Part shown: in pieces, positions 22,004 to 57,880 of the stretch
Numbering within the stretch: the stretch's first letter is position 1
Layout of the letters: the number at the start of each line of letters is the position of its first letter
Assembly: GCA_965662335.1 (NCBI GenBank)
Contig: CBFIGQ010000047.1
Span: forward strand, 13,131 to 77,130
DNA from: Minisyncoccia bacterium
GTDB lineage: Bacteria > Patescibacteriota > Minisyncoccia > Phycocordibacterales > UBA9973
Reading direction: 5' to 3'
Length of the DNA: 64,000 bases
Notes under the pieces: model-generated
What the model was told of the DNA's origin: nothing
Database searches by the model: none
What the model saw: the letters and a program-made list of their open reading frames with translations, nothing else
Position numbers and translations under genes: made by a program

Positions 22004-22032
22004 TTGACACTCTGTAGGTCATCGTCTATACT
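22004..22032 (+). promoter_or_regulatory. Consensus sigma70 promoter upstream of 23S rRNA
   Basis: TTGACA (22004-22009), 17-nt spacer, TATACT (22027-22032). Confidence 0.7.
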
Positions 22033-22097
22033 CTTTCCACTTATGAAGTTTTCTACGAAAAACCAATCGTAACGGCGGCTGCCCTTGCTTTTGGACG

Positions 22098-22120
22098 GCC
22101 GCCCGAGAGGCGGTTTTTTC
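22098..22120 (+). promoter_or_regulatory. Terminator-like hairpin plus T6 inside the 23S leader (possible attenuator or sRNA 3' end)
   Basis: ccgcc-cgagag-gcgg followed by tttttt about 65 nt downstream of the -10; preceded by a GC-rich hairpin ggcggc...gccgcc. Confidence 0.4.
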
Positions 22121-22145
22121 GTCAAAAAACCAATCATATGTTCGT

Positions 22146-22160
22146 TGTTTAACAACACAA
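22146..22160 (+). promoter_or_regulatory. boxA-like antitermination element in 23S leader
   Basis: tgtttaacaacac resembles rrn boxA consensus (gCTCTTTAACAA). Confidence 0.4.
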
Positions 22161-22840
22161 TCCTGTCCCTCTGGTTATCTTCAAATAACTGCAGGAGAGG
22201 AGACAGTAGTACTGGATCAGCTCGAGCGGTCGAGCGAAGTCTGGTACGAACCCGCCTGATTCTCGGAGAGAGCTCTGGCGGGCATGATTTCTAGATTTCC
22301 TAATAGGAAATCAAGAGCATATGGTGGATGCCTAGGTTCTACATGGCGATGAAAGACGCGGGAGGCGGCGATACGCTTCGGGGAGGTGCCTACAAACCTT
22401 TGATCCGGAGATTTCTGAATGGGGAAACCCAATAGAGTAAACCTCTATTATCCCGACACATAAGTGGTCGGGGAGCGCACCCAGGGAAGTGAAACATCTC
22501 AGTACCTGGAGGAAAAGAAAAAAATGTTATGTATATAACGACATTCCCTAAGTAGCGGCGAGCGAAAAGGGACAAGCCCAAACCGGTGCATCATGGAGAC
22601 AATAAATTTATTTGTTGTCTCCATGATGCACCGGGGTTGTAAGGCAAAAGCGTCAATTTATTGAGAAGAGTTACAAAATGTATGTATAGAAGAAGTTGTT
22701 GGAAACCAACGCCATAGTGGGTGATAGCCCCGTAGTCGAAATGCATATATCTCTTTTGCTTTTGTTCTTGAGTACTTCCGGACACGAATAGCCGGGAGGA
22801 ATCCGCCAGAACTAACTGGTAAGGCTAAATACATTGTAGA

Positions 22841-22883
<43 letters not shown>

Positions 22884-24371
22884 TCCGAAAGGAGGGTGAA
22901 ATAGTACTGAAACCATATGCTTACAAGGAGTCGGAGCGGGTATTTATATCCGTCACGGCGTGCCTATTGAAGAATGAGCCAACGAGTTAATCTGTGCGGC
23001 TTGGCTAAGGTGTAAAGCACCGGAGCCGTAGGGAAACCAAGTGTGAATAGCGCGCAATTGGTCGTACAGATTAGACCCGAAGCCAGGTGAGCTATCCATG
23101 AGCAGGGTGAAGTTTGTCGAAAGACAGATGGAGGCCCGAACCGGTAAATCGTACAACGTTTTCGGATGACTTGTGGATTGGAGTGAAAAGCTAATCGAAC
23201 CTGGTAATAGCTGGTTCTCTCCGAAATAGCTTTAGGGTTAGCGTCACGTGTTCCCTTTGGGGGTAGAGCACTGGAAAGTTTCGACAGGGAGCAATCTCGC
23301 GACACTTATCAAACTCCGAATACCAAAGGTTAAGAACGTGGCAGTTAGTCTACGGGGGCTAAGCTCCGTCAGACAAAAGGGAAACAGCCCAGATCTCTAA
23401 ATAAGGTCCCTAAATCTGCACTCAGTACATCATAAGGATGTGAGATTTCTCTGACAATGAGGAAGTTGGCTTAGAAGCAGCCATCTTTTAAAGAAAGCGT
23501 AACAGCTCACTCATCGAGAGATCTTGCGCCGCAGATAATCGGGGTTAAGTGCAGTACCGAATTTGAGGGCTTGTAGATTTCATAAAGGAAAGAAAATTTT
23601 GGCGTGAGAAAGATTGGATACCAGATTGGCTCCACTTCTTTCTCTGCCAATCTAATTCCTTTTTTTATGAAATCTATAAGCGGTAGGAGAGTATTCCACT
23701 CTTGCTGTGAAGGCAAAGGCGTGAGCCATGCTGGAGCGTGTGGAAGTAAGAATGTTGGCACAAGTAACCGCAAGTCGGGTGAGAAACCCGGCCGCCGAAA
23801 GACTAAGGTTTCCTGGGTAACGGTTATCGTCCCAGGGTTAGTCGGGGCCTAAGGTGATGGCGAGAGCCGCAACCGATGGACAGTGGGTTAATATTCCCAC
23901 ACTTCTATTGTATTCGATGGAGGGACGAAGGGTAGTAACATATGCCTCTTATTGGATTGAGGTAGACATAGAGCGCAGGTAGGATAGGTAAATCCGTCTT
24001 ACAATACTGTCAACTATGGCTCGTGCGAAGCTACGGCTTAGCGAAGATATGTGAGCACGCTTCCGAGAAAAGCTTCTAAGATTAGTACAGTAGAACCCGT
24101 ACCGTAAACCGACACAGGTAGTCAGGTCGAGTAGACCAAGGCGAACGAGTGAGGGATCCCCAAGGAACTCGGCAAAAAAGCAGCCGTAACTTCGGGATAA
24201 GGCTTGCCGGCAGCAATGTCGGCCGCAGCGAAAGTATTCCTGGCAACTGTTTATCAAAAACACAGCTCCCTGCGAACTCGTAAGAGGATGTATAGGGGGT
24301 GACACCTGACCAATGCCAGAAGGTTAACCAACGGTGGTGCGATTATATCAAGCTGGCTGTTGTAAGCCCTG

Positions 24372-24406
<35 letters not shown>

Positions 24407-24615
24407 TTTGCATTTCAACCTCGTTGGAATGCAAAACGGACTAGGACTGTCTATAGAAAACGATAAACAATTTAAAAGAATAATCATTACATTTCAAGCT
24501 ACCTTTCATAGCGTAATCTATGAATAGTCCATTGTGATTAACGAGAGACCAACGTCACAGTTCCGACCCTTGTAAAAGGAGGAATAAGAGAGAGTCCAAC
24601 TGAGAGGAATAGTTG
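24407..24615 (+). other. About 209-nt ORF-less insertion in 23S between CCTAAGGT and AGCGAAATTCC (E. coli ~1917 region); group I intron-like
   Basis: Flanking exon sequence is contiguous in other 23S rRNAs; upstream exon ends in T and insert ends in G, as for group I introns; no ORF. Confidence 0.5.
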
Positions 24616-25274
24616 AGCGAAATTCCTTGTCGGGTAAGTTCCGACGCGCACGAATGGTGTAATGACTGGGAAACTGTCTCGGGGATTTGCTCGGTGAAAA
24701 TACAGTACCGGTGAAGATGCCGGTTACCTGCAGTTAGACGAAAAGACCCTAGAAGCTTTACTACAACTTGGTATTGGGCATGTTCTAGTACTACGTAGCA
24801 TAGGAAGGAGACTTTGAAGCGCCGCTTTCGGGCCGCGTGGAGTCGTCAGTGAAATACTTCTTTGTACGTGGGCATGTCCTAACCAGCGCGGCAAAAACGA
24901 GCTGGAACAGTGCCTGGTGGGTAGTTTTACTGGGGCGGTATCCTCCCAAAAAGTAACGGAGGAGTTCAAAGGTAGGCTAGGCGCGAATGGAAACCGTGCC
25001 GATAGTGCAATGGCATAAGCCTGCTTGACTGTAAGGGGGACATCCCGAGCAGGTGCGAAAGCAGAACATAGTGAACCGACAATTCGCATTAGATGCGGTT
25101 GAAGATTAACGGATAGAAGCTACTCTAGGGATAACAGGCTAGTTCCGCCTAAGCGTCCATAGCGACGGCGGAGTTCGGCACCTCGATGTCGGCTCACCTT
25201 ATCCTGGGGCTGGAGAAGGTCCCAAAGGTTTGGCTGTTCGCCAATTAAAAAGGTACGCGAGCTGGGTTCAGACC

Positions 25275-25715
25275 GTGAGGAAGTGAAAAGTACTACCATG
25301 AAGTGTACGGAACGAAGGGATACGACTCTTGTTTGCGTGATACTCATGAGTTCAAGTCTCTTTTGACTGACTCACCGTCTGAATCCTTGAGGAAATTTTT
25401 TGAAATGTTTTTTATAAAAACATTCACATATAAAATATGTTTTAGTCTTTTCGTCTAATAAGGTTAAAGCTCGTGTTCTCTTCTGCAAAGAGTACATGAG
25501 AGAAAGATAGTAATAAAAGAAACCAATCAGTTACGGCGGCTTCATATGGAGACATATGAAGTATGCTCAACTAATATCGGTGAAGGCCTTATGGGTTAAC
25601 ACCGAGGGAACCGTAAGGGCCCGTAGAGACTACAACTACGTTGAGGCACTCATGAAGTGCAAGATATAGTCCATTCCATACAGTAATGTGTGAATAAGAA
25701 GCGTAAGACAGGTTG
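25275..25715 (+). other. About 440-nt ORF-less insertion in 23S between GGGTTcAGAcC and CGTaAGACAGgTtGG (E. coli ~2585-2593 region); group I intron-like
   Basis: Conserved flanks interrupted at a classical rRNA intron site; exact boundaries ambiguous by a few nt; no ORF above 60 aa. Confidence 0.5.
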
Positions 25716-26042
25716 GTCTCCTATCTACTGCAGGCGTTGATACTTGAAGAAATTCGCTCCTAGTACGAGAGGACCGGAGTGAACGAACCTCTGGTGTACG
25801 GGCTCTAGTGCCAACTGGACCGCCCGGTAGCTATGTTCGGAATGGATAACCTCTGAAAGCATCTAAGAGGGAAGCCAGTTCTAAGATGAGGTATCGTCAA
25901 GGGCCGTAAGAGATGATTACGTTGATAGGCACCAAGTGTACGCGTAGTAATGCGCTCAGCTGAGGTGTACTAATTGCCCGACTCCTATTAGGAAATCTGG
26001 AAATCATAAATAAGAAAAGAAAAAATAATTCGAGCGCACTGT

Positions 26043-26151
<109 letters not shown>

Positions 26152-46897: not shown

Positions 46898-48136
46898 CTA
46901 GAGCGAACGATTTTTGATTTCACTAGTAATTCGTTCAATAAATGCTTCAAGTGTAACGCCTTCGAGTTTTAGATCATTTCTACCTTCTACCGTAATCGCG
47001 TGCGATTCTTGCTCCTTTTCTCCAATAATGATTTGGTATGGTATTTTCTCAGTTTTTGCATTTCGTATACGTTTGCCAAGACTATCACTAGTATCAAGTA
47101 TGGTCCGAACGCCAGCATCTTTAAGTACCGATTCTATACTCTGTGCATAGGCTGTAAACTGCTCGCTCACGGGTAGGATTGCAACCTGTACTGGTGAGAG
47201 CCAAAGCGGAAATGCACCGCGATACTTTTCGATAAGAAAGGCCATGATGCGCTCGATAGCACCAATCGAAGAACGGTGTACGACAAATGCCTGATGCTCT
47301 AGTCCATCTTCACCGGTATAAGTGAGATTAAACCGTGCAGGCATACAGAAGTCATACTGTACGGTAAATGCAGTATCTTCTTTGCCATTTACATTCTTCA
47401 TCTGAATATCTATTTTGGGACCGTAGAACGCAGCCTCATCTGTTGCCTCCTCAAACTTTGACCCGCGGGCTTTCATGAGATCTCGAAGAAGACCTTCACC
47501 TTTCTCCCATGCCTCGTCATTTTTGTAGTACTTTTCAGTATTAGTGCGGTCTCCAAGTGAGAGACGATAGCGATAGTCTACGTCTAGGGTAAGTCCAAAT
47601 ACACTAGTCACATATTCAATCAAGTCGAGTGCTTTGCCTATTTCCTCTACTGCCTGTTCCTCGTTTGCGCAGATAATGTGTGCATCAGCTAGACAAAAGG
47701 TGCGAACACGCTGGAGTCCCATGAGTTCTCCTGATTGTTCATACCGATACAGTTGGGCAAGCTCCGCGATACGCATTGGGAGTTCTCGATAACTGTGCGG
47801 CTTTGAAAGATAGAGCTCAAAGTGGTGCGGACAGGTCATAGGGCGAAGCATGAATTCTTCGTCATCAATCTGTATTGGCGCGTACATTGAGTCTTTGTAG
47901 TGAGGGTAGTGGCCGCTCTTTTTGTAGAGATCGAGTTTTGCGATGTCAGGGGTCGTGACATGGAGGTACCCTCGTCGGATTTCTTCGTCGATAATAAACC
48001 TCTCGAGCTCACGCCTAATTGTTGCGCCTTTCGGGAGCCAGAGAGGAAGACCTTTGCCGACCGTATCAGAGAAAGTGAAGAGCTCAAGTTCTCGACCAAG
48101 TTTTTTGTGATCTGCGTGTTCTATAGATTCAGACAT
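46898..48136 (-). CDS. thrS: Threonine--tRNA ligase, catalytic core plus anticodon-binding domain only
   Basis: DHKKLGRELELF, class II motifs, C-terminal anticodon-binding domain; 412 aa and lacks N-terminal TGS/editing domains. Confidence 0.85.
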   Translation of the reverse strand: MSESIEHADHKKLGRELELFTFSDTVGKGLPLWLPKGATIRRELERFIIDEEIRRGYLHVTTPDIAKLDLYKKSGHYPHYKDSMYAPIQIDDEEFMLRPMTCPHHFELYLSKPHSYRELPMRIAELAQLYRYEQSGELMGLQRVRTFCLADAHIICANEEQAVEEIGKALDLIEYVTSVFGLTLDVDYRYRLSLGDRTNTEKYYKNDEAWEKGEGLLRDLMKARGSKFEEATDEAAFYGPKIDIQMKNVNGKEDTAFTVQYDFCMPARFNLTYTGEDGLEHQAFVVHRSSIGAIERIMAFLIEKYRGAFPLWLSPVQVAILPVSEQFTAYAQSIESVLKDAGVRTILDTSDSLGKRIRNAKTEKIPYQIIIGEKEQESHAITVEGRNDLKLEGVTLEAFIERITSEIKNRSL

Positions 48137-48219: not shown

Positions 48220-48756
48220 ATGAATTTATTTCGTATTGAATCCTCAAATCATTTGGACACAGCTCGCCAATTGAGAACGTTCATTGAAAAATTACCTATA
48301 ACAGCACAGTTACGATTCCTTGCTAAATCATCATATTCACGTACTTTTGCTGATACTGTTATTGTATTTAATGATGCAGGAGACTATGTATTACTAAAGG
48401 TGACTCAGCCAACAGAGAGTACTAAAGAAATTCGAGATATTCCTGAATGGCGTGAAGATGTTGCAAAGCGGTGTGTAGAAACAGAAACAAAGGAAAACCT
48501 TAAAGTTATTTCGACCCCCATTACAATTGGTATTAAAAAGAGTAAAAATAGTCACCCTCATCCAGATTTGTATGGAAAAGATTTTTATAAATACACCATG
48601 CTAATTACTGGGTATGCAGGCATTATTCACTCTTTACCAGATTTAATATGGGTAAAGCGCAAATTGCTTCCAAAAATCTTTGTACCAGATGGAAATATTC
48701 CACACCCGCAAGTGTATGCATATAATGATTTTATAAAGTATTGTAGCAATATGTAG
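48220..48756 (+). CDS. Hypothetical protein
   Basis: 178 aa, no recognisable domain. Confidence 0.4.
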   Translation: MNLFRIESSNHLDTARQLRTFIEKLPITAQLRFLAKSSYSRTFADTVIVFNDAGDYVLLKVTQPTESTKEIRDIPEWREDVAKRCVETETKENLKVISTPITIGIKKSKNSHPHPDLYGKDFYKYTMLITGYAGIIHSLPDLIWVKRKLLPKIFVPDGNIPHPQVYAYNDFIKYCSNM

Positions 48757-48760
48757 TCTT

Positions 48761-48795
48761 AGGCCTTTTGAGATTTCAGAAGGCCTTTTTATTTA
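48761..48795 (+). terminator. Intrinsic terminator
   Basis: aggcctt-loop-aaggcct followed by T5. Confidence 0.6.
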
Positions 48796-48829
48796 CAAAA
48801 TTCTGTCTTTGCGCTATAGTGTCAGTACT

Positions 48830-49039
48830 ATGGTAGTACGAATGAGACACACACGGGCGCATACTGCAAATCGACGCAGTCATCACGCGCTCAAATCACC
48901 TGCGCTTTCAACAGACAAGAGCGGTGCTTCACATATTCGCCACAAGGCAACGCTTGATGGTATGTACAAAGGACGATCAGTAGGCACCGACCAGGTCAAA
49001 AAAGTTATTAAGAAGCAAAAGAGAGCAGCTAAGAAATAA
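48830..49039 (+). CDS. rpmF: 50S ribosomal protein L32
   Basis: MVVRMRHTRAHTANRRSHHAL...GASHIRHKATLDGMYKGRSV matches bL32. Confidence 0.8.
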   Translation: MVVRMRHTRAHTANRRSHHALKSPALSTDKSGASHIRHKATLDGMYKGRSVGTDQVKKVIKKQKRAAKK

Positions 49040-49051
49040 CCACTTATACAT

Positions 49052-49972
49052 TTGTTCTTTATGGCAAACCGGCACCTTTCTAGATCTATAGTCCTCCAGG
49101 CCCTCTTTGAGTGGGACTTTGCCGGCATGCCCGAAGATCTCAAAGGTATTATCGACCGTGATATTGCTGAGTTTGCTCCTGGACATAGTGATAATGCTTT
49201 TATTTACACTCTTGCCGAGCTCGTCCAGCGCAAGCAGACAGTTATCGACGATATTCTCTCAAAGGCAGCGCCCGAGTGGCCACTGCCAAAAATTTCAAAT
49301 GTCGATCGTAATATATTGCGCATGGGGCTCGCCGAGCTATTGTTTGGTGACCGTGAGCAGGTGCCGCCAAAGGTTGCTATTAACGAGGCGATAGAGCTTG
49401 CAAAAAACTTTGGAGGAGAAAACTCTGGAAAGTTTGTAAACGGAGTACTGGGCGCGGTGTACAAAGAGATCGGTGAGCCGGGCAAGGATCAGATCTCAAA
49501 ACCACGAGCTCAAAAAGAAAAAGTCCCAGAGGAACCTATCGACATATCAAAGCTTCCTGTTGAAGCAAAAGGAGGTGGTATCGTGCATGCACGCGAGGAC
49601 GGGGTGGACTATGTAGCGCTCGTGCATGATGTCTTTGGATACTGGACACTACCAAAAGGAGGTATGGAAGAAGGTGAGACTATAGATCAGACCGCAAAGC
49701 GAGAGATCGAAGAGAAGCTCGGCATACCAGTTGAGCTTGGTCCAGAAATAGGAGCTATTGAGTATGTTGCGTCTCATCCTGAAAAAGGGAAGCTGCTTAA
49801 AAAAGTCGTCTTTTATCTGGCGGAGGCGAAGTACCAGGCGCTTGATCTCCATACCAACGGAGGGCTCGATAAGGCAGAGTGGTTCCAGCTCCATGAGGTG
49901 GTTGACCTTACGGTATACGATGATATATTACCTCTTATCGCAAAGGCGATTGAAAAAATTACTACTAAATAA
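49052..49972 (+). CDS. nusB: NusB antitermination factor fused to a C-terminal NUDIX hydrolase domain
   Basis: N-terminal ~145 aa NusB fold (RSIVLQALFEWDF...AINEAIELAKNFGGENSGKFVNGVLGAV); C-terminal Nudix box GYWTLPKGGMEEGETIDQTAKREIEEKLG. Confidence 0.8.
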   Translation: MFFMANRHLSRSIVLQALFEWDFAGMPEDLKGIIDRDIAEFAPGHSDNAFIYTLAELVQRKQTVIDDILSKAAPEWPLPKISNVDRNILRMGLAELLFGDREQVPPKVAINEAIELAKNFGGENSGKFVNGVLGAVYKEIGEPGKDQISKPRAQKEKVPEEPIDISKLPVEAKGGGIVHAREDGVDYVALVHDVFGYWTLPKGGMEEGETIDQTAKREIEEKLGIPVELGPEIGAIEYVASHPEKGKLLKKVVFYLAEAKYQALDLHTNGGLDKAEWFQLHEVVDLTVYDDILPLIAKAIEKITTK

Positions 49973-50039: not shown

Positions 50040-50732
50040 ATGAAAGACTTTACATCATTTGAGAAGTCACTCGGCATTACCTTTGCCAACAAAGAACTTC
50101 TCACGCACGCATTTATTCACCGCTCATATATCAACGAAAATCCGAAATCAGGCTTTCAGCACAACGAACGACTTGAGTTTCTCGGTGACGCAGTGATAGA
50201 ACTGGTTGTGACGGATTATCTGTACAATCAGTATCCTAATCATCACGAAGGAGATCTTACTGCATACCGCTCTGCACTCGTAAATGCAGTTATTATGGGA
50301 GAGGTTGCACAGTCACTGGGCATGAACGAGTACCTTCTTCTTTCAAAGGGTGAACAAAAGGATACAGGGAGGGCTCGTCAGACCATCCTTGCAAATACCT
50401 ATGAGTCATTTGTTGGGGCACTCTACCTTGATCAGGGATATGCATCGTGTGACACATTTGTAACCAAAACGCTTCTTAGTAAGCTCGAGGATATTATTAA
50501 AAACAAATCATGGAAAGATGCAAAAAGCCTCATTCAAGAAGAAGCTCAGGAGCGAGTAGGGGTAACACCATCGTATAGGGTTGTGTCAGAAACGGGTCCG
50601 GATCATGACAAGCACTTTACTATTGGAGTATTTTTTGGAGACCTGAAAATAGCTGAAGGTAAGGGTAGAAGCAAGCAAGAAGGGGAGCAAAAAGCAGCTC
50701 TAGCAGCTCTCACCAAGAAAGGCTGGCTCTAA
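50040..50732 (+). CDS. rnc: Ribonuclease III
   Basis: ERLEFLGDAV signature plus C-terminal dsRBD. Confidence 0.9.
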   Translation: MKDFTSFEKSLGITFANKELLTHAFIHRSYINENPKSGFQHNERLEFLGDAVIELVVTDYLYNQYPNHHEGDLTAYRSALVNAVIMGEVAQSLGMNEYLLLSKGEQKDTGRARQTILANTYESFVGALYLDQGYASCDTFVTKTLLSKLEDIIKNKSWKDAKSLIQEEAQERVGVTPSYRVVSETGPDHDKHFTIGVFFGDLKIAEGKGRSKQEGEQKAALAALTKKGWL

Positions 50733-50811: not shown

Positions 50812-51255
50812 ATGAAAAAGTTCTTTGTAATTGCATGTATTGTTTGCATTTCGATAGCGAAAGCTTCTGCACAAACATATGTCATTGACCCCAAATGGGC
50901 TGAGGCAATATTTCCTGAATACACAGGAGAATGGGTTGCCCAGCATACCGATGTGCAAGTGGTAGATGAGGAATTTCAGAAAAAATTCAAAAAACAATTG
51001 AAATCTGAATATTTCTTCTACAACACAAACTCCATGGGTAAAATCAGGCTTGGCGATACAGTGTTTATATTTCAAAACACTATTTACTACTCCATGCATG
51101 ACCAGTCATACGTAGATACAAAAAAGGCGTATGAAGAAAATTTGAGAAAAGCAAATGTGGTCAGAAAGCCCAAAGGCCATAAGGCAGGAGGAGCACTCCT
51201 CGCAATCGGTACCGGTCTTGTGCTCGGAGCAGTTGTCGGTATGTCGCAGCGATGA
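50812..51255 (+). CDS. Secreted hypothetical protein with C-terminal TM anchor
   Basis: Signal peptide MKKFFVIACIVCISIAKASA; C-terminal hydrophobic helix. Confidence 0.45.
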   Translation: MKKFFVIACIVCISIAKASAQTYVIDPKWAEAIFPEYTGEWVAQHTDVQVVDEEFQKKFKKQLKSEYFFYNTNSMGKIRLGDTVFIFQNTIYYSMHDQSYVDTKKAYEENLRKANVVRKPKGHKAGGALLAIGTGLVLGAVVGMSQR

Positions 51256-51328: not shown

Positions 51329-53548
51329 ATGCGTCTCAAGCATATCGAAATCAGCGGCTTCAAATCATTTGCAAAGAAAAGCACGCTCTCCTTTACTGCG
51401 CCCGTCACCGCAGTTGTCGGGCCCAATGGGTCAGGCAAAAGTAACGTCGTCGAGGCATTTCGCTTTGTACTTGGAGAGCAATCTATGAAAAGCATGCGCG
51501 GTAAAAGCGGGGCTGATCTTATATTTAGAGGTTCGAGTGGTACTGCCAAGCTTTCACGTGCTGCGGTGAGTATCACGTTTGATAATAGCGACAAGGTATT
51601 TGCATTTCAAGGTGATTCTTCGAATACTCCTGTGCTCTTTGATACCATAACCTTCACTCGCGAGCTCTATGCCGATGGTACCAGTAAATATCTCTTGAAT
51701 GGCACCGAGATACGACTCAAGCAAATGGTAGAGTTACTCTCATCAGTACACATAGGTGGTTCAAGTCATCACATCATTTCTCAGGGTGAAGCTGACAGTG
51801 TACTGCGTGCGAGCCCTAGAGATAGGCGAGGCATACTCGAAGAAGCGCTTGGACTCAAGGTGTATCACTATCGCATCAAGGAGAGCGAAGCAAAACTTGT
51901 AAAGAGCACAGAAACACTCAAGGAAGTTCAGTCGCTCCGTCGTGAGCTTGCCCCCCATCTTTCTTTCCTCAAGAAACAAGTAGAGAAAATAGAAAAAGGA
52001 CGGAGCTTAAGGACTGAGCTCGAAGGCCTCATGCTCTCGTATCTCTCAAGCGAATCCGCGCACCTTCATGTTGAAGACGAGCACCTGCGAAGCGCTATGA
52101 AGCTCCTTCGCGATAAAAAAAATACTCTTGAGAATGAATTAGCCAATCTTCCCGATACTGCTACTCATACTGACACAACTACACCCGAGCTTCTCAAAGA
52201 GAAACATACGCTCGAAGAAATCCAAAACGAGAGACGAAGTCTTGAGAGTCGTATTGGCCGGCTTGAGGGAATGATTGAGGTAGAACGACGTCTCAGTACG
52301 GTGCAGTCTGGCCCCATTACCTTTTCTGAAGAAGAGTATCACGCGCTCCTTGGGGATATTGAAGAAGTCATACGTACTATTAGAGAGGCGAAGAGTATGG
52401 AAGGTGTGGAGCAGGGGGTGAGACGCCTTGAGCCTATTATTACAAGACTTAAAGATCGTGAACCAAAAAAGAATGTACAGGCACCTGGAGCCCTCCACGA
52501 CATAGCACTTGAGCTAGAAGACCTGCAAAAAAAGCTTACCCTACTCATTGCTCGAGAAGCACAGAGTAAGGAGCGCATCGCCGCGATCGAGATTGCTCGA
52601 GAACAAGAGCGTGCGCAAAAAGAAGAACAACACTCCAAGCGGTATGAACTTCGCGCAGACCTCACCAATACAAATGCAGACCTCAGTATTATCGAAAGTA
52701 AGCATAGCGTATTTCTGGAACGAAAGGCGCTCTATGATAGCGAGCTCAAAGAAGCTGCGTTTCTCTTTGGTTCGCAGTTTTTGCATACTCTGAAAGAGAC
52801 AAAAGGAATGCCTGAGCTCGATCTTGTCGACATCAAGCGAACTATTGATCGCCTCAAAATCAGACTTGACGAACATACAGGTATCGGTCAGGAAGTCGTA
52901 GGAGAGTACGAATCAACGCTTCAGCGCGATGCTTTCCTCTCTCGCGAAGTTGCAGATATCGAAGGCAGTATTCGGAACCTAGAGACTCTCATCATTGACC
53001 TCAAAAAGGTACTTGATGAAAAATTTACGGGCGGCGTAACTGTTATTAATGAGCGATTTAGCGAATTCTTCAAGACTATGTTTGGAGGAGGAAGCGCATT
53101 TCTCGAAGTAACAGTGGAAAAGAAAAAGAAGCGCAAGAGTGACGAGGACTTTGACGAGGAATCCTATCAAGAGGAAGATGAGCGCTTTATGGAGCGGGGT
53201 ATAGAAGTCCATGTAAACCTTCCAGAAAAGAAAGTGAAAGAACTTACCATGCTCTCGGGTGGTGAGCGCTCGCTGGTCTCTATTGCGCTTCTCTTTGCGA
53301 TCTCTCAGGTCAACCCGCCGCCATTTTTAGTGCTTGATGAGACTGATGCGGCGCTCGATGAGGCAAACTCTCGCCGCTATGGAGACATGATTGAGCGACT
53401 TTCAGCATACTCACAGCTCATCGTGGTGACACACAACCGCGAGACTATGAGCCGTGCCCAGGTTCTCTATGGCGTAACGCTCGGTGCTGATGGAGGCTCT
53501 AAACTTCTCTCGATCAAGTTTGATGAGGCAGTAAAGGTAGCGAAGTAG
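51329..53548 (+). CDS. smc: SMC-family chromosome segregation ATPase (short, 739 aa)
   Basis: N-terminal Walker A GPNGSGKSN, coiled coil, C-terminal signature LSGGERSLVSIALLFA and Walker B LVLDETDAALD. Confidence 0.7.
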   Translation: MRLKHIEISGFKSFAKKSTLSFTAPVTAVVGPNGSGKSNVVEAFRFVLGEQSMKSMRGKSGADLIFRGSSGTAKLSRAAVSITFDNSDKVFAFQGDSSNTPVLFDTITFTRELYADGTSKYLLNGTEIRLKQMVELLSSVHIGGSSHHIISQGEADSVLRASPRDRRGILEEALGLKVYHYRIKESEAKLVKSTETLKEVQSLRRELAPHLSFLKKQVEKIEKGRSLRTELEGLMLSYLSSESAHLHVEDEHLRSAMKLLRDKKNTLENELANLPDTATHTDTTTPELLKEKHTLEEIQNERRSLESRIGRLEGMIEVERRLSTVQSGPITFSEEEYHALLGDIEEVIRTIREAKSMEGVEQGVRRLEPIITRLKDREPKKNVQAPGALHDIALELEDLQKKLTLLIAREAQSKERIAAIEIAREQERAQKEEQHSKRYELRADLTNTNADLSIIESKHSVFLERKALYDSELKEAAFLFGSQFLHTLKETKGMPELDLVDIKRTIDRLKIRLDEHTGIGQEVVGEYESTLQRDAFLSREVADIEGSIRNLETLIIDLKKVLDEKFTGGVTVINERFSEFFKTMFGGGSAFLEVTVEKKKKRKSDEDFDEESYQEEDERFMERGIEVHVNLPEKKVKELTMLSGGERSLVSIALLFAISQVNPPPFLVLDETDAALDEANSRRYGDMIERLSAYSQLIVVTHNRETMSRAQVLYGVTLGADGGSKLLSIKFDEAVKVAK

Positions 53549-56059: not shown

Positions 56060-56087
56060 TTGACTTCCTACTCCTATCGACTATAAT
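56060..56087 (+). promoter_or_regulatory. Consensus sigma70 promoter for 16S rRNA
   Basis: TTGACT (56060-56065), 16-nt spacer, TATAAT (56082-56087); boxA-like ttctttaacaattgc at about 56133-56147. Confidence 0.7.
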
Positions 56088-56269
56088 AGGGGTCGCTCTC
56101 CAAACTCTCTGGAAACTCTCCGGGGATTTGAGGGCATTCTTTAACAATTGCATACATGCATTAAAAGAATGCGAGTCAACACAATCTATTTATAGAAAAT
56201 GGATAACAATAATCCAGTGACAAGGGAATCATTTTTCTCTTGTCTCGATCTAAGTCACATTTGTGACTT

Positions 56270-57880
<1,611 letters not shown>

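Follow-up and report, generated by a model that had tools for sequence, protein, structure and literature searches.

We analysed a 64,000-nt stretch of DNA from a Minisyncoccia bacterium (Patescibacteriota; contig CBFIGQ010000047.1, positions 13,131 to 77,130 of the forward strand), hereafter the window, in whose own coordinates all positions are given, and focus here on one gene, nusB::nudix, which joins the transcription antitermination factor NusB to a Nudix domain within a single polypeptide. An open reading frame (ORF) extends over 49052..49972 on the + strand with neither internal stop nor frameshift. The initial annotation read all 306 codons of this frame as the protein, and the frame does exist uninterrupted, but the coding sequence is likely 303 aa long, as all homologues begin with the N-terminus MANRHLSR and the true start is thus almost certainly the ATG at 49061. 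The gene and its parts are as follows.

49061..49972, + strand: nusB::nudix fusion coding sequence, 303 aa plus stop; its ATG at 49061 lies 21 nt past the rpmF stop
49061..49474, + strand: NusB domain, aa 1-138 (PF01029, TIGR01951, Foldseek)
49475..49555, + strand: linker, aa 139-165, ~25 aa, disordered in the AlphaFold2 (AF2) model
49556..49969, + strand: Nudix domain, aa 166-303 (PF00293), resembling diadenosine polyphosphate (ApnA) hydrolases by sequence and fold

Both domains are complete, as had been proposed from the sequence, and this was borne out by profile searches and structure prediction alike. Pfam placed NusB at aa 7-135 (E 2.9e-33) and NUDIX at aa 192-285 (E 6.5e-15), the latter scoring 55.8 against a gathering score of 21.1, while an AF2 model built with 43 homologues (mean predicted local distance difference test, pLDDT, 83.7) revealed two well-folded domains, a helical one at aa 4-137 and a Nudix alpha/beta fold at aa 167-302, separated by a disordered linker with pLDDT <50 over aa 140-158. 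Profile and fold thus both assign the C-terminal part to the Nudix superfamily. The peptide quoted in the initial annotation, GYWTLPKGGMEEGETIDQTAKREIEEKLG, was found at aa 193-221, and our search for a frameshift or stop that would split the ORF found none.

The linker is under purifying selection, and it opens with a motif, G138-E-P-G-K142 (49472-49486), that follows straight after the last NusB helix and falls in the segment modelled as disordered. Alignments and genome loci revealed that this GEPGK motif is invariant across the fusion subclade and absent in NusB-only relatives and in Saccharibacteria NusB, such that it may represent a short docking motif.

Evaluating the N-terminal domain further, we found that it scores 116.1 bits on the NCBIfam NusB equivalog model TIGR01951 (cutoff 88.35) and 115.5 on PF01029 (cutoff 23.1), spanning profile positions 3-133 of 133, and that its model has the all-helical NusB fold, with seven helices over aa 4-137 and block-mean pLDDT of 82-94. 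Foldseek superposed it on Thermotoga maritima NusB (1tzv/1tzt) with a template modelling score (TMt) of 0.83-0.84 and a root-mean-square deviation of 1.9, at 37% identity to 1tzv, and the range is 0.82-0.84 when M. tuberculosis NusB is included. These results show that the gene encodes the organism's own NusB, a genuine rRNA antitermination factor, and no second NusB or Nudix gene was found within the 64-kb window. The likeness to the classical NusB of E. coli, T. maritima and M. tuberculosis lies in these N-terminal 138 aa and in boxA-like elements in both rRNA leaders of the window. The classical proteins differ in standing alone at ~130-150 aa, whereas the window protein adds ~165 aa of linker and Nudix domain, and also in gene neighbourhood, which is rpmF/rnc here and of ribE/thiL type for nusB in model bacteria. 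Separately, one fusion homologue (L041, 6082-6189) carries a ~42-aa Lys/Gly-rich insertion inside its NusB domain, after the first helix.

NusB together with S10 (NusE) binds boxA RNA of rRNA leaders, and the two boxA-like elements of the window, whose upstream promoters each match 11/12 positions, are these (TSS, transcription start site):

56137..56147, + strand: 16S leader, boxA-like element TTCTTTAACAA, ~43 nt downstream of the TSS predicted for the promoter at 56060-56087; putative NusB/S10 target
22145..22155, + strand: 23S leader, boxA-like element TTGTTTAACAA, ~106 nt downstream of the TSS predicted for the promoter at 22004-22032

The pattern TTNTTTAACAA, which resembles the E. coli boxA consensus, has exactly 2 matches in the 64 kb, both on the + strand and both in an rRNA leader, against 0.44 expected by chance, an estimate that is only indicative because the pattern was chosen after both sites had been seen. 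Several other features of these rRNA regions were observed as well. The rRNA genes are unlinked (22301-26149 and 56269-57880): 30 kb separate 23S and 5S from the 16S gene downstream, and both units have their own promoter-like site and their own boxA-like element. At 3692 nt, the match to 23S exceeds the 2925-nt model by a length that implies ~770 nt of insertions; no intron family was detected at gathering threshold. A terminator-like GC hairpin with a T-run (22097-22115) sits in the 23S leader between the promoter and the boxA-like element, upstream of the presumed site of Nus-complex assembly, and could be an attenuator or a boxB-like hairpin.

To place the fusion among other bacteria, we drew on a search of 5.8 billion proteins and on a scan of one genome per GTDB species. 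The protein search returned >120 clusters at 70-100% identity to the window protein, all of ~300 aa and all with PF01029 plus PF00293, from metagenome-assembled genomes of Paceibacterota, Minisyncoccia and Patescibacteria; an identical protein was present on 6 contigs from three sources. Public source names, where shown, were 'transcription antitermination factor NusB' or 'N utilization substance protein B', i.e. the fusion is hidden. The genome scan yielded 76 loci, and 42 of these (records labelled Nomurabacteria, Adlerbacteria, Campbellbacteria and Paceibacterota) carried the uninterrupted fusion in the order gyrB / thrS(-) / rpmF / nusB::nudix / rnc / smc. A further 33 (records of Nealsonbacteria, Jorgensenbacteria, Minisyncoccales and others) had NusB alone (128-178 aa) with rnc directly next, and a single locus, L075, had nusB and nudix split. 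Wherever the contig allows, rnc lies downstream of nusB or nusB::nudix in all 76. The two genes that flank the fusion in the window are:

48830..49039, + strand: rpmF, encoding ribosomal protein L32 (Pfam Ribosomal_L32p, E 9e-8); start uncertain, ATG 48830 or 48842
50040..50732, + strand: rnc, encoding RNase III (Pfam Ribonuclease_3 plus dsrm)

A second group of fusions, more distant and equally large, was found in records labelled Komeilibacteria, Uhrbacteria and Parcubacteria. Its members (e.g. P0463) share with the window protein both the NusB::Nudix architecture and the L32–fusion–RNase III gene order (e.g. L158), but they have a shorter linker, are only ~30% identical to the window's Nudix part, do not have a Tyr at the position equivalent to Y235 and have a canonical Nudix box in 101/119 cases, whereas the box in the window has a Lys at position 20. 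The fusion had been called unusual, which is so relative to model organisms only, since it is common within Patescibacteria, where hundreds of protein clusters and at least 43 GTDB species have it in the order rpmF–nusB::nudix–rnc. Each of the two domains is from a well-known family, and public databases contain many instances of the architecture, annotated only as NusB. Full-text literature searches found no published description of a NusB–Nudix fusion, and a large review of Nudix proteins does not mention NusB (PMC5389931). A scan of IMG/VR for viral origin or phage association gave only one unrelated 42-aa Nudix fragment.

The split locus and its relatives bear on the origin of the fusion. 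At L075, nusB (164 aa) is followed after a 10-nt gap by a gene of its own for a 166-aa Nudix protein, whose box is canonical, and then by rnc, and a scan of metagenome contigs with an alignment of such stand-alone Nudix proteins revealed the order nusB > nudix > rnc across 80 loci wherever the contig allows. In these loci nusB and nudix are separate ORFs (78/78), with median gaps of ~-4 nt and ~+2 nt when starts are inferred by homology. The stand-alone Nudix proteins are named NUDIX domain-containing protein or hydrolase in Candidatus Saccharibacteria records and 'diadenosine hexaphosphate hydrolase' or ADP-ribose pyrophosphatase YjhB in Joint Genome Institute (JGI) records. They are homologous to the window domain (E 1.7e-17) and occupy the same genomic slot between nusB and rnc, yet differ from it in being encoded by a separate gene, in having a basic N-terminal tail and in their box, as 120/120 of the stand-alone proteins listed retain the full G,E,R,E,E,E,G signature of the canonical box, whereas the window's fused domain has a Lys. 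The Saccharibacteria proteins are probably active enzymes. Because nusB, nudix and rnc are separate and adjacent in Saccharibacteria, the fusion joined long-standing operon partners, which shows that the NusB–Nudix–RNase III association is older than the fusion. The Arg/Lys-rich N-terminal extension of the stand-alone proteins (e.g. L075 6500-6600), ~25-35 aa ahead of the Nudix fold, recalls an RNA-binding arm and takes the position of the fusion linker, without similarity to it.

Among solved structures, the closest to the window's Nudix domain by sequence were the Aquifex Ap4A hydrolase 3i7u (E 6.6e-8), the Thermus Ap6A hydrolase Ndx1, mycobacterial MutT1 and human NUDT2. The fold search was headed by the same Aquifex protein, aq_158 (3i7u; TMt 0.86, Foldseek E 3e-10), and by Ndx1 (1vc8; TMt 0.85), followed by the diadenosine polyphosphatase MutT1/Rv2985, the Nudix domain of NrtR (3gz8), the Ap4A hydrolases of C. 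elegans and human, and CT771; further ApnA-hydrolase matches include 1ktg, 3u53 and 4mpo, with BdRppH and NudC ranking lower. By both sequence and structure, then, the closest relatives of the domain are ApnA hydrolases. In the Aquifex protein and in Ndx1, a Tyr located after the box aligns with its Y235, which is kept in 95% of diverse subclade fusions. From this alignment to Aquifex and Ndx1 we take Y235 to be the ApnA-specificity Tyr; in human that Tyr, Y87, stacks on adenine (PMC5389931).

Membership of the RppH, MutT, NudC, ADP-ribose and NrtR families was rejected, all NCBIfam equivalog models falling far below their cutoffs: RppH models (PRK00714 type) reached at best 23.4 bits against 118, with others at 14-21 against 116-259, and the NrtR model NF050029 matched aa 193-303 weakly, at 16.1 bits against 400. 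The initial annotation had set RppH-like against ADP-ribose as the subtypes to be told apart, and neither model fits, although the ApnA-hydrolase-like group to which the domain belongs has been argued to overlap the RNA 5' pyrophosphohydrolases and the enzymes that decap NpnN-RNA (PMC5389931, PMC7044304).

These comparisons also set out how the window protein departs from its known relatives. It shares with the ApnA hydrolases (aq_158, Ndx1, NUDT2, the C. elegans enzyme, Chlamydia CT771 and MutT1/Rv2985) the best sequence and fold matches and a W-x-x-P-K-G motif, but those enzymes have a Glu at box position 20 where the window protein has a Lys, they are not fused to NusB, and the window's subclade relatives further lose E53, E44 and the first Gly of the box (G1). 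RppH, itself an Ap5A hydrolase, is likewise a Nudix enzyme of the ApnA-hydrolase radiation acting on RNA 5' ends, but is free-standing with a canonical box. Degenerate Nudix boxes in transcription or RNA-processing proteins are known from NrtR and from CFIm25/NUDT21, whose box reads GX5EX7RLX2EIXGR (PMC5389931); NrtR, although a top fold match, senses ADP-ribose and has a winged-helix DNA-binding domain, whereas the partner here is an N-terminal NusB and no winged helix-turn-helix is present, and NUDT21 binds UGUA RNA in eukaryotes, both proteins being unrelated to NusB.

The Nudix box is where the sequence departs from expectation.

49658..49726, + strand: Nudix box, aa 200-222, GGMEEGETIDQTAKREIEEKLGI, fitting GX5EX7REUXE[K]XGU
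49715..49717, + strand: codon AAG for K219, box position 20, in place of Glu (from the sequence and the alignment to Ndx1)

Aligned to GX5EX7REUXEEXGU, the box reads G200-X5-E206-X7-R214-E215-I-E-E218-K219-L-G221-I222 and is thus incomplete, such that the 'canonical Nudix box' of the initial annotation did not hold. K219 occupies the position of MutT E57, the last of the three helix glutamates, and aligns with E50 of Ndx1, the residue changed in the substrate-trap mutant, and with Q50 in that mutant (1vc9, an E50Q–Mg–ATP complex); the catalytic Glu is therefore not present. The position-20 equivalent in Dcp2, E153, is the general base, and its mutation abolishes decapping (PMC8984151).

Box erosion was found to be widespread in the window's subclade, whose records are labelled Nomura-, Adler- and Campbellbacteria. 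Four box types occur among the 120 closest homologues: PKGG…REIEEK, which is the window's type; LKGG…REIKEK; VKSG…RS[IV]K[EQD]K, in which the first Gly, E53 and E57 are lost; and SKGG…REIKEE, which is canonical. More divergent fusions replace RE with RA, AK, RV, NK, RG or RQ, and their G-X5-E loop carries insertions. All three glutamates of the triad are kept in 22/120 close homologues, in 14/40 GTDB fusions and in 8/38 fusion representatives after 50% clustering, against 44/60 stand-alone relatives. A neighbour-joining tree of 119 fusions, read by parsimony, requires at least 11 changes in the state of E53 and at least 12 in that of the triad. Because the second fusion group is canonical in most members, this erosion is specific to the window's subclade, and the same group rules out that fusion itself causes the box to decay.

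Conservation measured over 77 diverse fusions revealed that catalytic positions are kept at 49% (E53), 66% (E44), 73% (E56), 77% (E57) and 81% (R52), while G172, D190, W195, T196, K199, Y235, L253, W274 and Y286 are kept at ≥94%, with W195, K199, Y235, W274 and Y286 at ≥95%. In stand-alone relatives the catalytic positions are kept at ≥92%, and most of the strongly conserved non-catalytic residues are common to them and the fusions. The replacements themselves are not random: across the 119 fusions, position 20 is E in 71 and K in 48, Lys being the sole replacement, and Lys is also the commonest replacement of E53, a choice that suggests direct phosphate contact in place of a metal.

We evaluated selection on the eroded domains by the Nei–Gojobori method, using pairs in which both Nudix domains are without catalytic residues. 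The ratio of nonsynonymous to synonymous rates (dN/dS) of these domains was 0.033-0.043 for L031/L033/L035 (AK..EE), 0.027 for L039/L040 (RV..KE) and 0.045 for L012/L014 (RS..EK), similar to the 0.007-0.053 of the NusB domains in the same pairs. With dN/dS of 0.02-0.06 in the subclade, the Nudix domain is thus under strong purifying selection even where it is dead. Between the window and its nearest GTDB relative (L001), synonymous sites are saturated and only dN is informative, at 0.043 for NusB and 0.047 for Nudix. Taken together, these analyses show that the window's subclade can do without the catalytic residues but not without the fold and the non-catalytic signature residues.

Comparison of near-identical genomes added a second pattern. 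L014, with a dead module, and L018, with a canonical one, have identical NusB proteins (dN 0.000, dS 0.33) but Nudix domains at dN 0.37 and dS 1.5, and their flanks (gyrB, thrS, rpmF, nusB, rnc, smc) are ~85-97% identical in DNA. Linker and Nudix domain together form a sharply bounded island, of 54-62% DNA identity between L014 and L018 and of 52-69% over the three pairs with this pattern (L014 6346-7012 vs L018; L012 vs L018; L007 6425-6790 vs L017), such that genomes with flanks at ~90% carry a canonical module in L018 and a dead one in L012 and L014. Across pairs whose NusB is 95-100% identical, Nudix identity is bimodal, at 50-70% or 80-100% with none at 70-80%. Bimodality and islands point to recombinational exchange of discrete Nudix cassettes, namely canonical, E-to-K and dead. 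That canonical and dead modules are swapped between near-identical genomes argues that a function independent of catalysis is selected in this clade, and on a far-reaching view that we consider doubtful, the alleles exchanged, canonical, half-dead or dead, would reflect selection on a core transcription factor that is diversifying or driven by conflict (e.g. phage, host). Further sharp low-identity islands occur between the ~90% identical L014 and L018 genomes (L014 2896-3279 and 10439-11520), one between gyrB and thrS and one downstream of smc.

Because catalytic glutamates have been lost repeatedly under purifying selection, hydrolysis is unlikely to be the maintained function here. Our preferred reading, to which we give about an even chance from these sequence patterns, is that the Nudix domain is a tethered module on NusB that binds nucleotide polyphosphates or RNA 5' ends and derives from an active hydrolase. 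Under this reading the NusB domain would nucleate the antitermination complex at boxA in both the 16S and the 23S leader, while the tethered Nudix domain, no longer needed for hydrolysis, would bind a nucleotide polyphosphate, most plausibly the 5' end of the nascent leader, triphosphorylated or capped with a dinucleoside polyphosphate (NpnN) and located ~40-110 nt before boxA, or, alternatively, a free ApnA-type nucleotide. Such binding would link the 5'-end state both with antitermination and with the processing of leaders by RNase III, with the Lys residues that replace metal ligands perhaps contacting phosphates directly, and the ancestral form, unfused or with a canonical box, would probably have been an active RppH/ApnA-hydrolase-like enzyme on the same substrate. 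As a precedent, Nudix domains without catalysis are typically parts of multidomain proteins and bind either a small molecule or another domain (PMC5389931). The most specific version, in which a pseudo-enzymatic reader of 5' ppp/NpnN ends or of an ApnA alarmone gates both antitermination and RNase III processing and is a polymorphic, recombining cassette, we consider doubtful.

Several points weigh against a purely binding role. The window box retains 6/7 signature residues, including R214, E215 (MutT E53) and E218, and because of this and because the general base varies among Nudix enzymes, residual or altered activity is possible. A canonical box is kept in most second-group fusions and in the Saccharibacteria proteins, so that the family-level function is probably enzymatic. 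The AF2 model has a predicted template modelling score (pTM) of 0.52 and gives no confident packing between the domains, and we therefore make no structural claim on how they cooperate; nor is a conserved operon or fusion proof of physical cooperation. Finally, both the ligand and any contact with RNA 5' ends are putative.

Among the alternatives, the strongest, which we hold to be possible though clearly less probable than a binding module, is that the window protein is still an active RppH/ApnA-hydrolase-like enzyme on RNA 5' ends, delivered by NusB to boxA transcripts, the E-to-K change being tolerated. The retained box residues fit such an enzyme, as do the conserved adjacency of rnc and the canonical boxes of the unfused Saccharibacteria homologues and of the second fusion group, and some characterised Nudix hydrolases do have non-canonical boxes (PMC5389931). 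Its fold is of a class with a suitable chemistry, since ApnA hydrolases have been argued to act generally on RNA 5' triphosphates as RppH does (PMC5389931), and RppH removes NpnN caps from bacterial RNA (PMC7044304). However, position 20 is the general base whose loss inactivates Dcp2, and in Ndx1, the closest solved homologue, it is the residue that was changed to obtain the substrate trap; near-identical genomes carry sister modules that lack E53 and G1 as well, yet are equally constrained; and RppH equivalog models gave only 14-23 bits. The proposal of the initial annotation, a 5'-end decapping or pyrophosphohydrolase activity tied to antitermination, is thus upheld in part, through the ApnA-like class, the conserved rpmF–nusB::nudix–rnc order, the Saccharibacteria operon and the boxA-like elements, while the Lys at position 20, the repeated Glu loss and the RppH scores speak against it; its other suggestion, hydrolysis of (p)ppGpp or of nucleoside-diphosphate (NDP) sugars, found no support, as nothing points to either specificity.

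An unlikely alternative, by analogy to NrtR, is that the Nudix domain would be an allosteric sensor of a free small molecule (an ApnA alarmone, ADP-ribose or similar) that tunes NusB antitermination. Consistent with a sensor are the NrtR Nudix domain among the top fold matches, the weak NrtR model match, the binding of small molecules by multidomain non-catalytic Nudix domains (PMC5389931) and the conservation of non-catalytic residues common to stand-alone relatives while catalytic ones decay. A disordered linker and low pTM give no sign of interdomain contact, though, the NrtR score is a small fraction of its cutoff, and the conserved operon with an evidently catalytic Nudix protein in Saccharibacteria would be left unexplained.

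Still less probable is a purely structural or protein-interaction module of the antitermination or rRNA-processing complex, without nucleotide ligand, which would serve dimerisation or docking to RNA polymerase (RNAP), S10, NusA/G or RNase III. The analogy here is SuhB, an inositol monophosphatase (IMPase)-fold protein in the E. coli rRNA transcription antitermination complex (rrnTAC). Dispensable catalytic residues in a conserved fold would suit this role, as would the resemblance of the invariant, fusion-specific GEPGK to a short docking motif, and Nudix domains that interact with other protein domains have been reviewed (PMC5389931). Against it, the invariant W195, K199 (of the PKG motif), Y235, W274 and Y286 are common to active stand-alone ApnA-type relatives, which favours retention of the ligand pocket over the rise of a new interface, and the specific replacement of metal ligands by Lys suggests continued phosphate contact. 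An assembly or sequencing artefact joining two adjacent genes, the scenario that the initial annotation had named as fatal to its claim, is practically negligible and is ruled out for the lineage by the >120 independent clusters and 42 uninterrupted GTDB species with their conserved linker motif, by the identical protein from three sources and by purifying selection on the linker, even though the genes are truly separate in one distant lineage (L075 and the Saccharibacteria loci).

Studies of NusB antitermination come almost entirely from model bacteria, in which NusB is an RNA-binding adaptor and nothing more. A whole radiation of ultra-small bacteria, by contrast, couples NusB physically or genetically to an Ap4A-hydrolase/RppH-like Nudix protein and to RNase III, in Saccharibacteria via an operon and in Parcubacteria-type lineages via a fusion. 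This coupling amounts to a Rosetta-stone style prediction that RNA 5'-end chemistry (triphosphate, NpnN caps) is tied to rRNA transcription and processing, a link of which we know of no description. The subclade further offers a natural series of canonical, E-to-K and fully dead alleles, all under equal purifying selection, and as such a clean system for the change from enzyme to binding module.

The remaining features concern the neighbourhood of the gene, where Pfam recognised L32, RNase III, SMC and threonyl-tRNA synthetase (ThrRS). Upstream of rpmF lie two candidate signals:

48761..48786, + strand: terminator-like hairpin ending the upstream gene, 11-bp stem plus T-run; upstream edge of the putative operon
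48792..48820, + strand: promoter-like site TTTACA-17-TATAGT ahead of rpmF, 10/12, a consensus match only

Two housekeeping proteins of the window are unusually short, namely ThrRS (46898-48136, - strand), which at only 412 aa has the class II core and anticodon-binding domain without N-terminal domains (Pfam), and the SMC-like protein (51329-53548, + strand) of only 739 aa. The cluster is flanked by ORFs of 178 aa (48220-48756, + strand) and 147 aa (50812-51255, + strand) that have no Pfam match, the former at the matching position in only 2 related loci (L013, L017) and the latter in only one (L001), and because they are present in so few related loci, both occupy variable slots.

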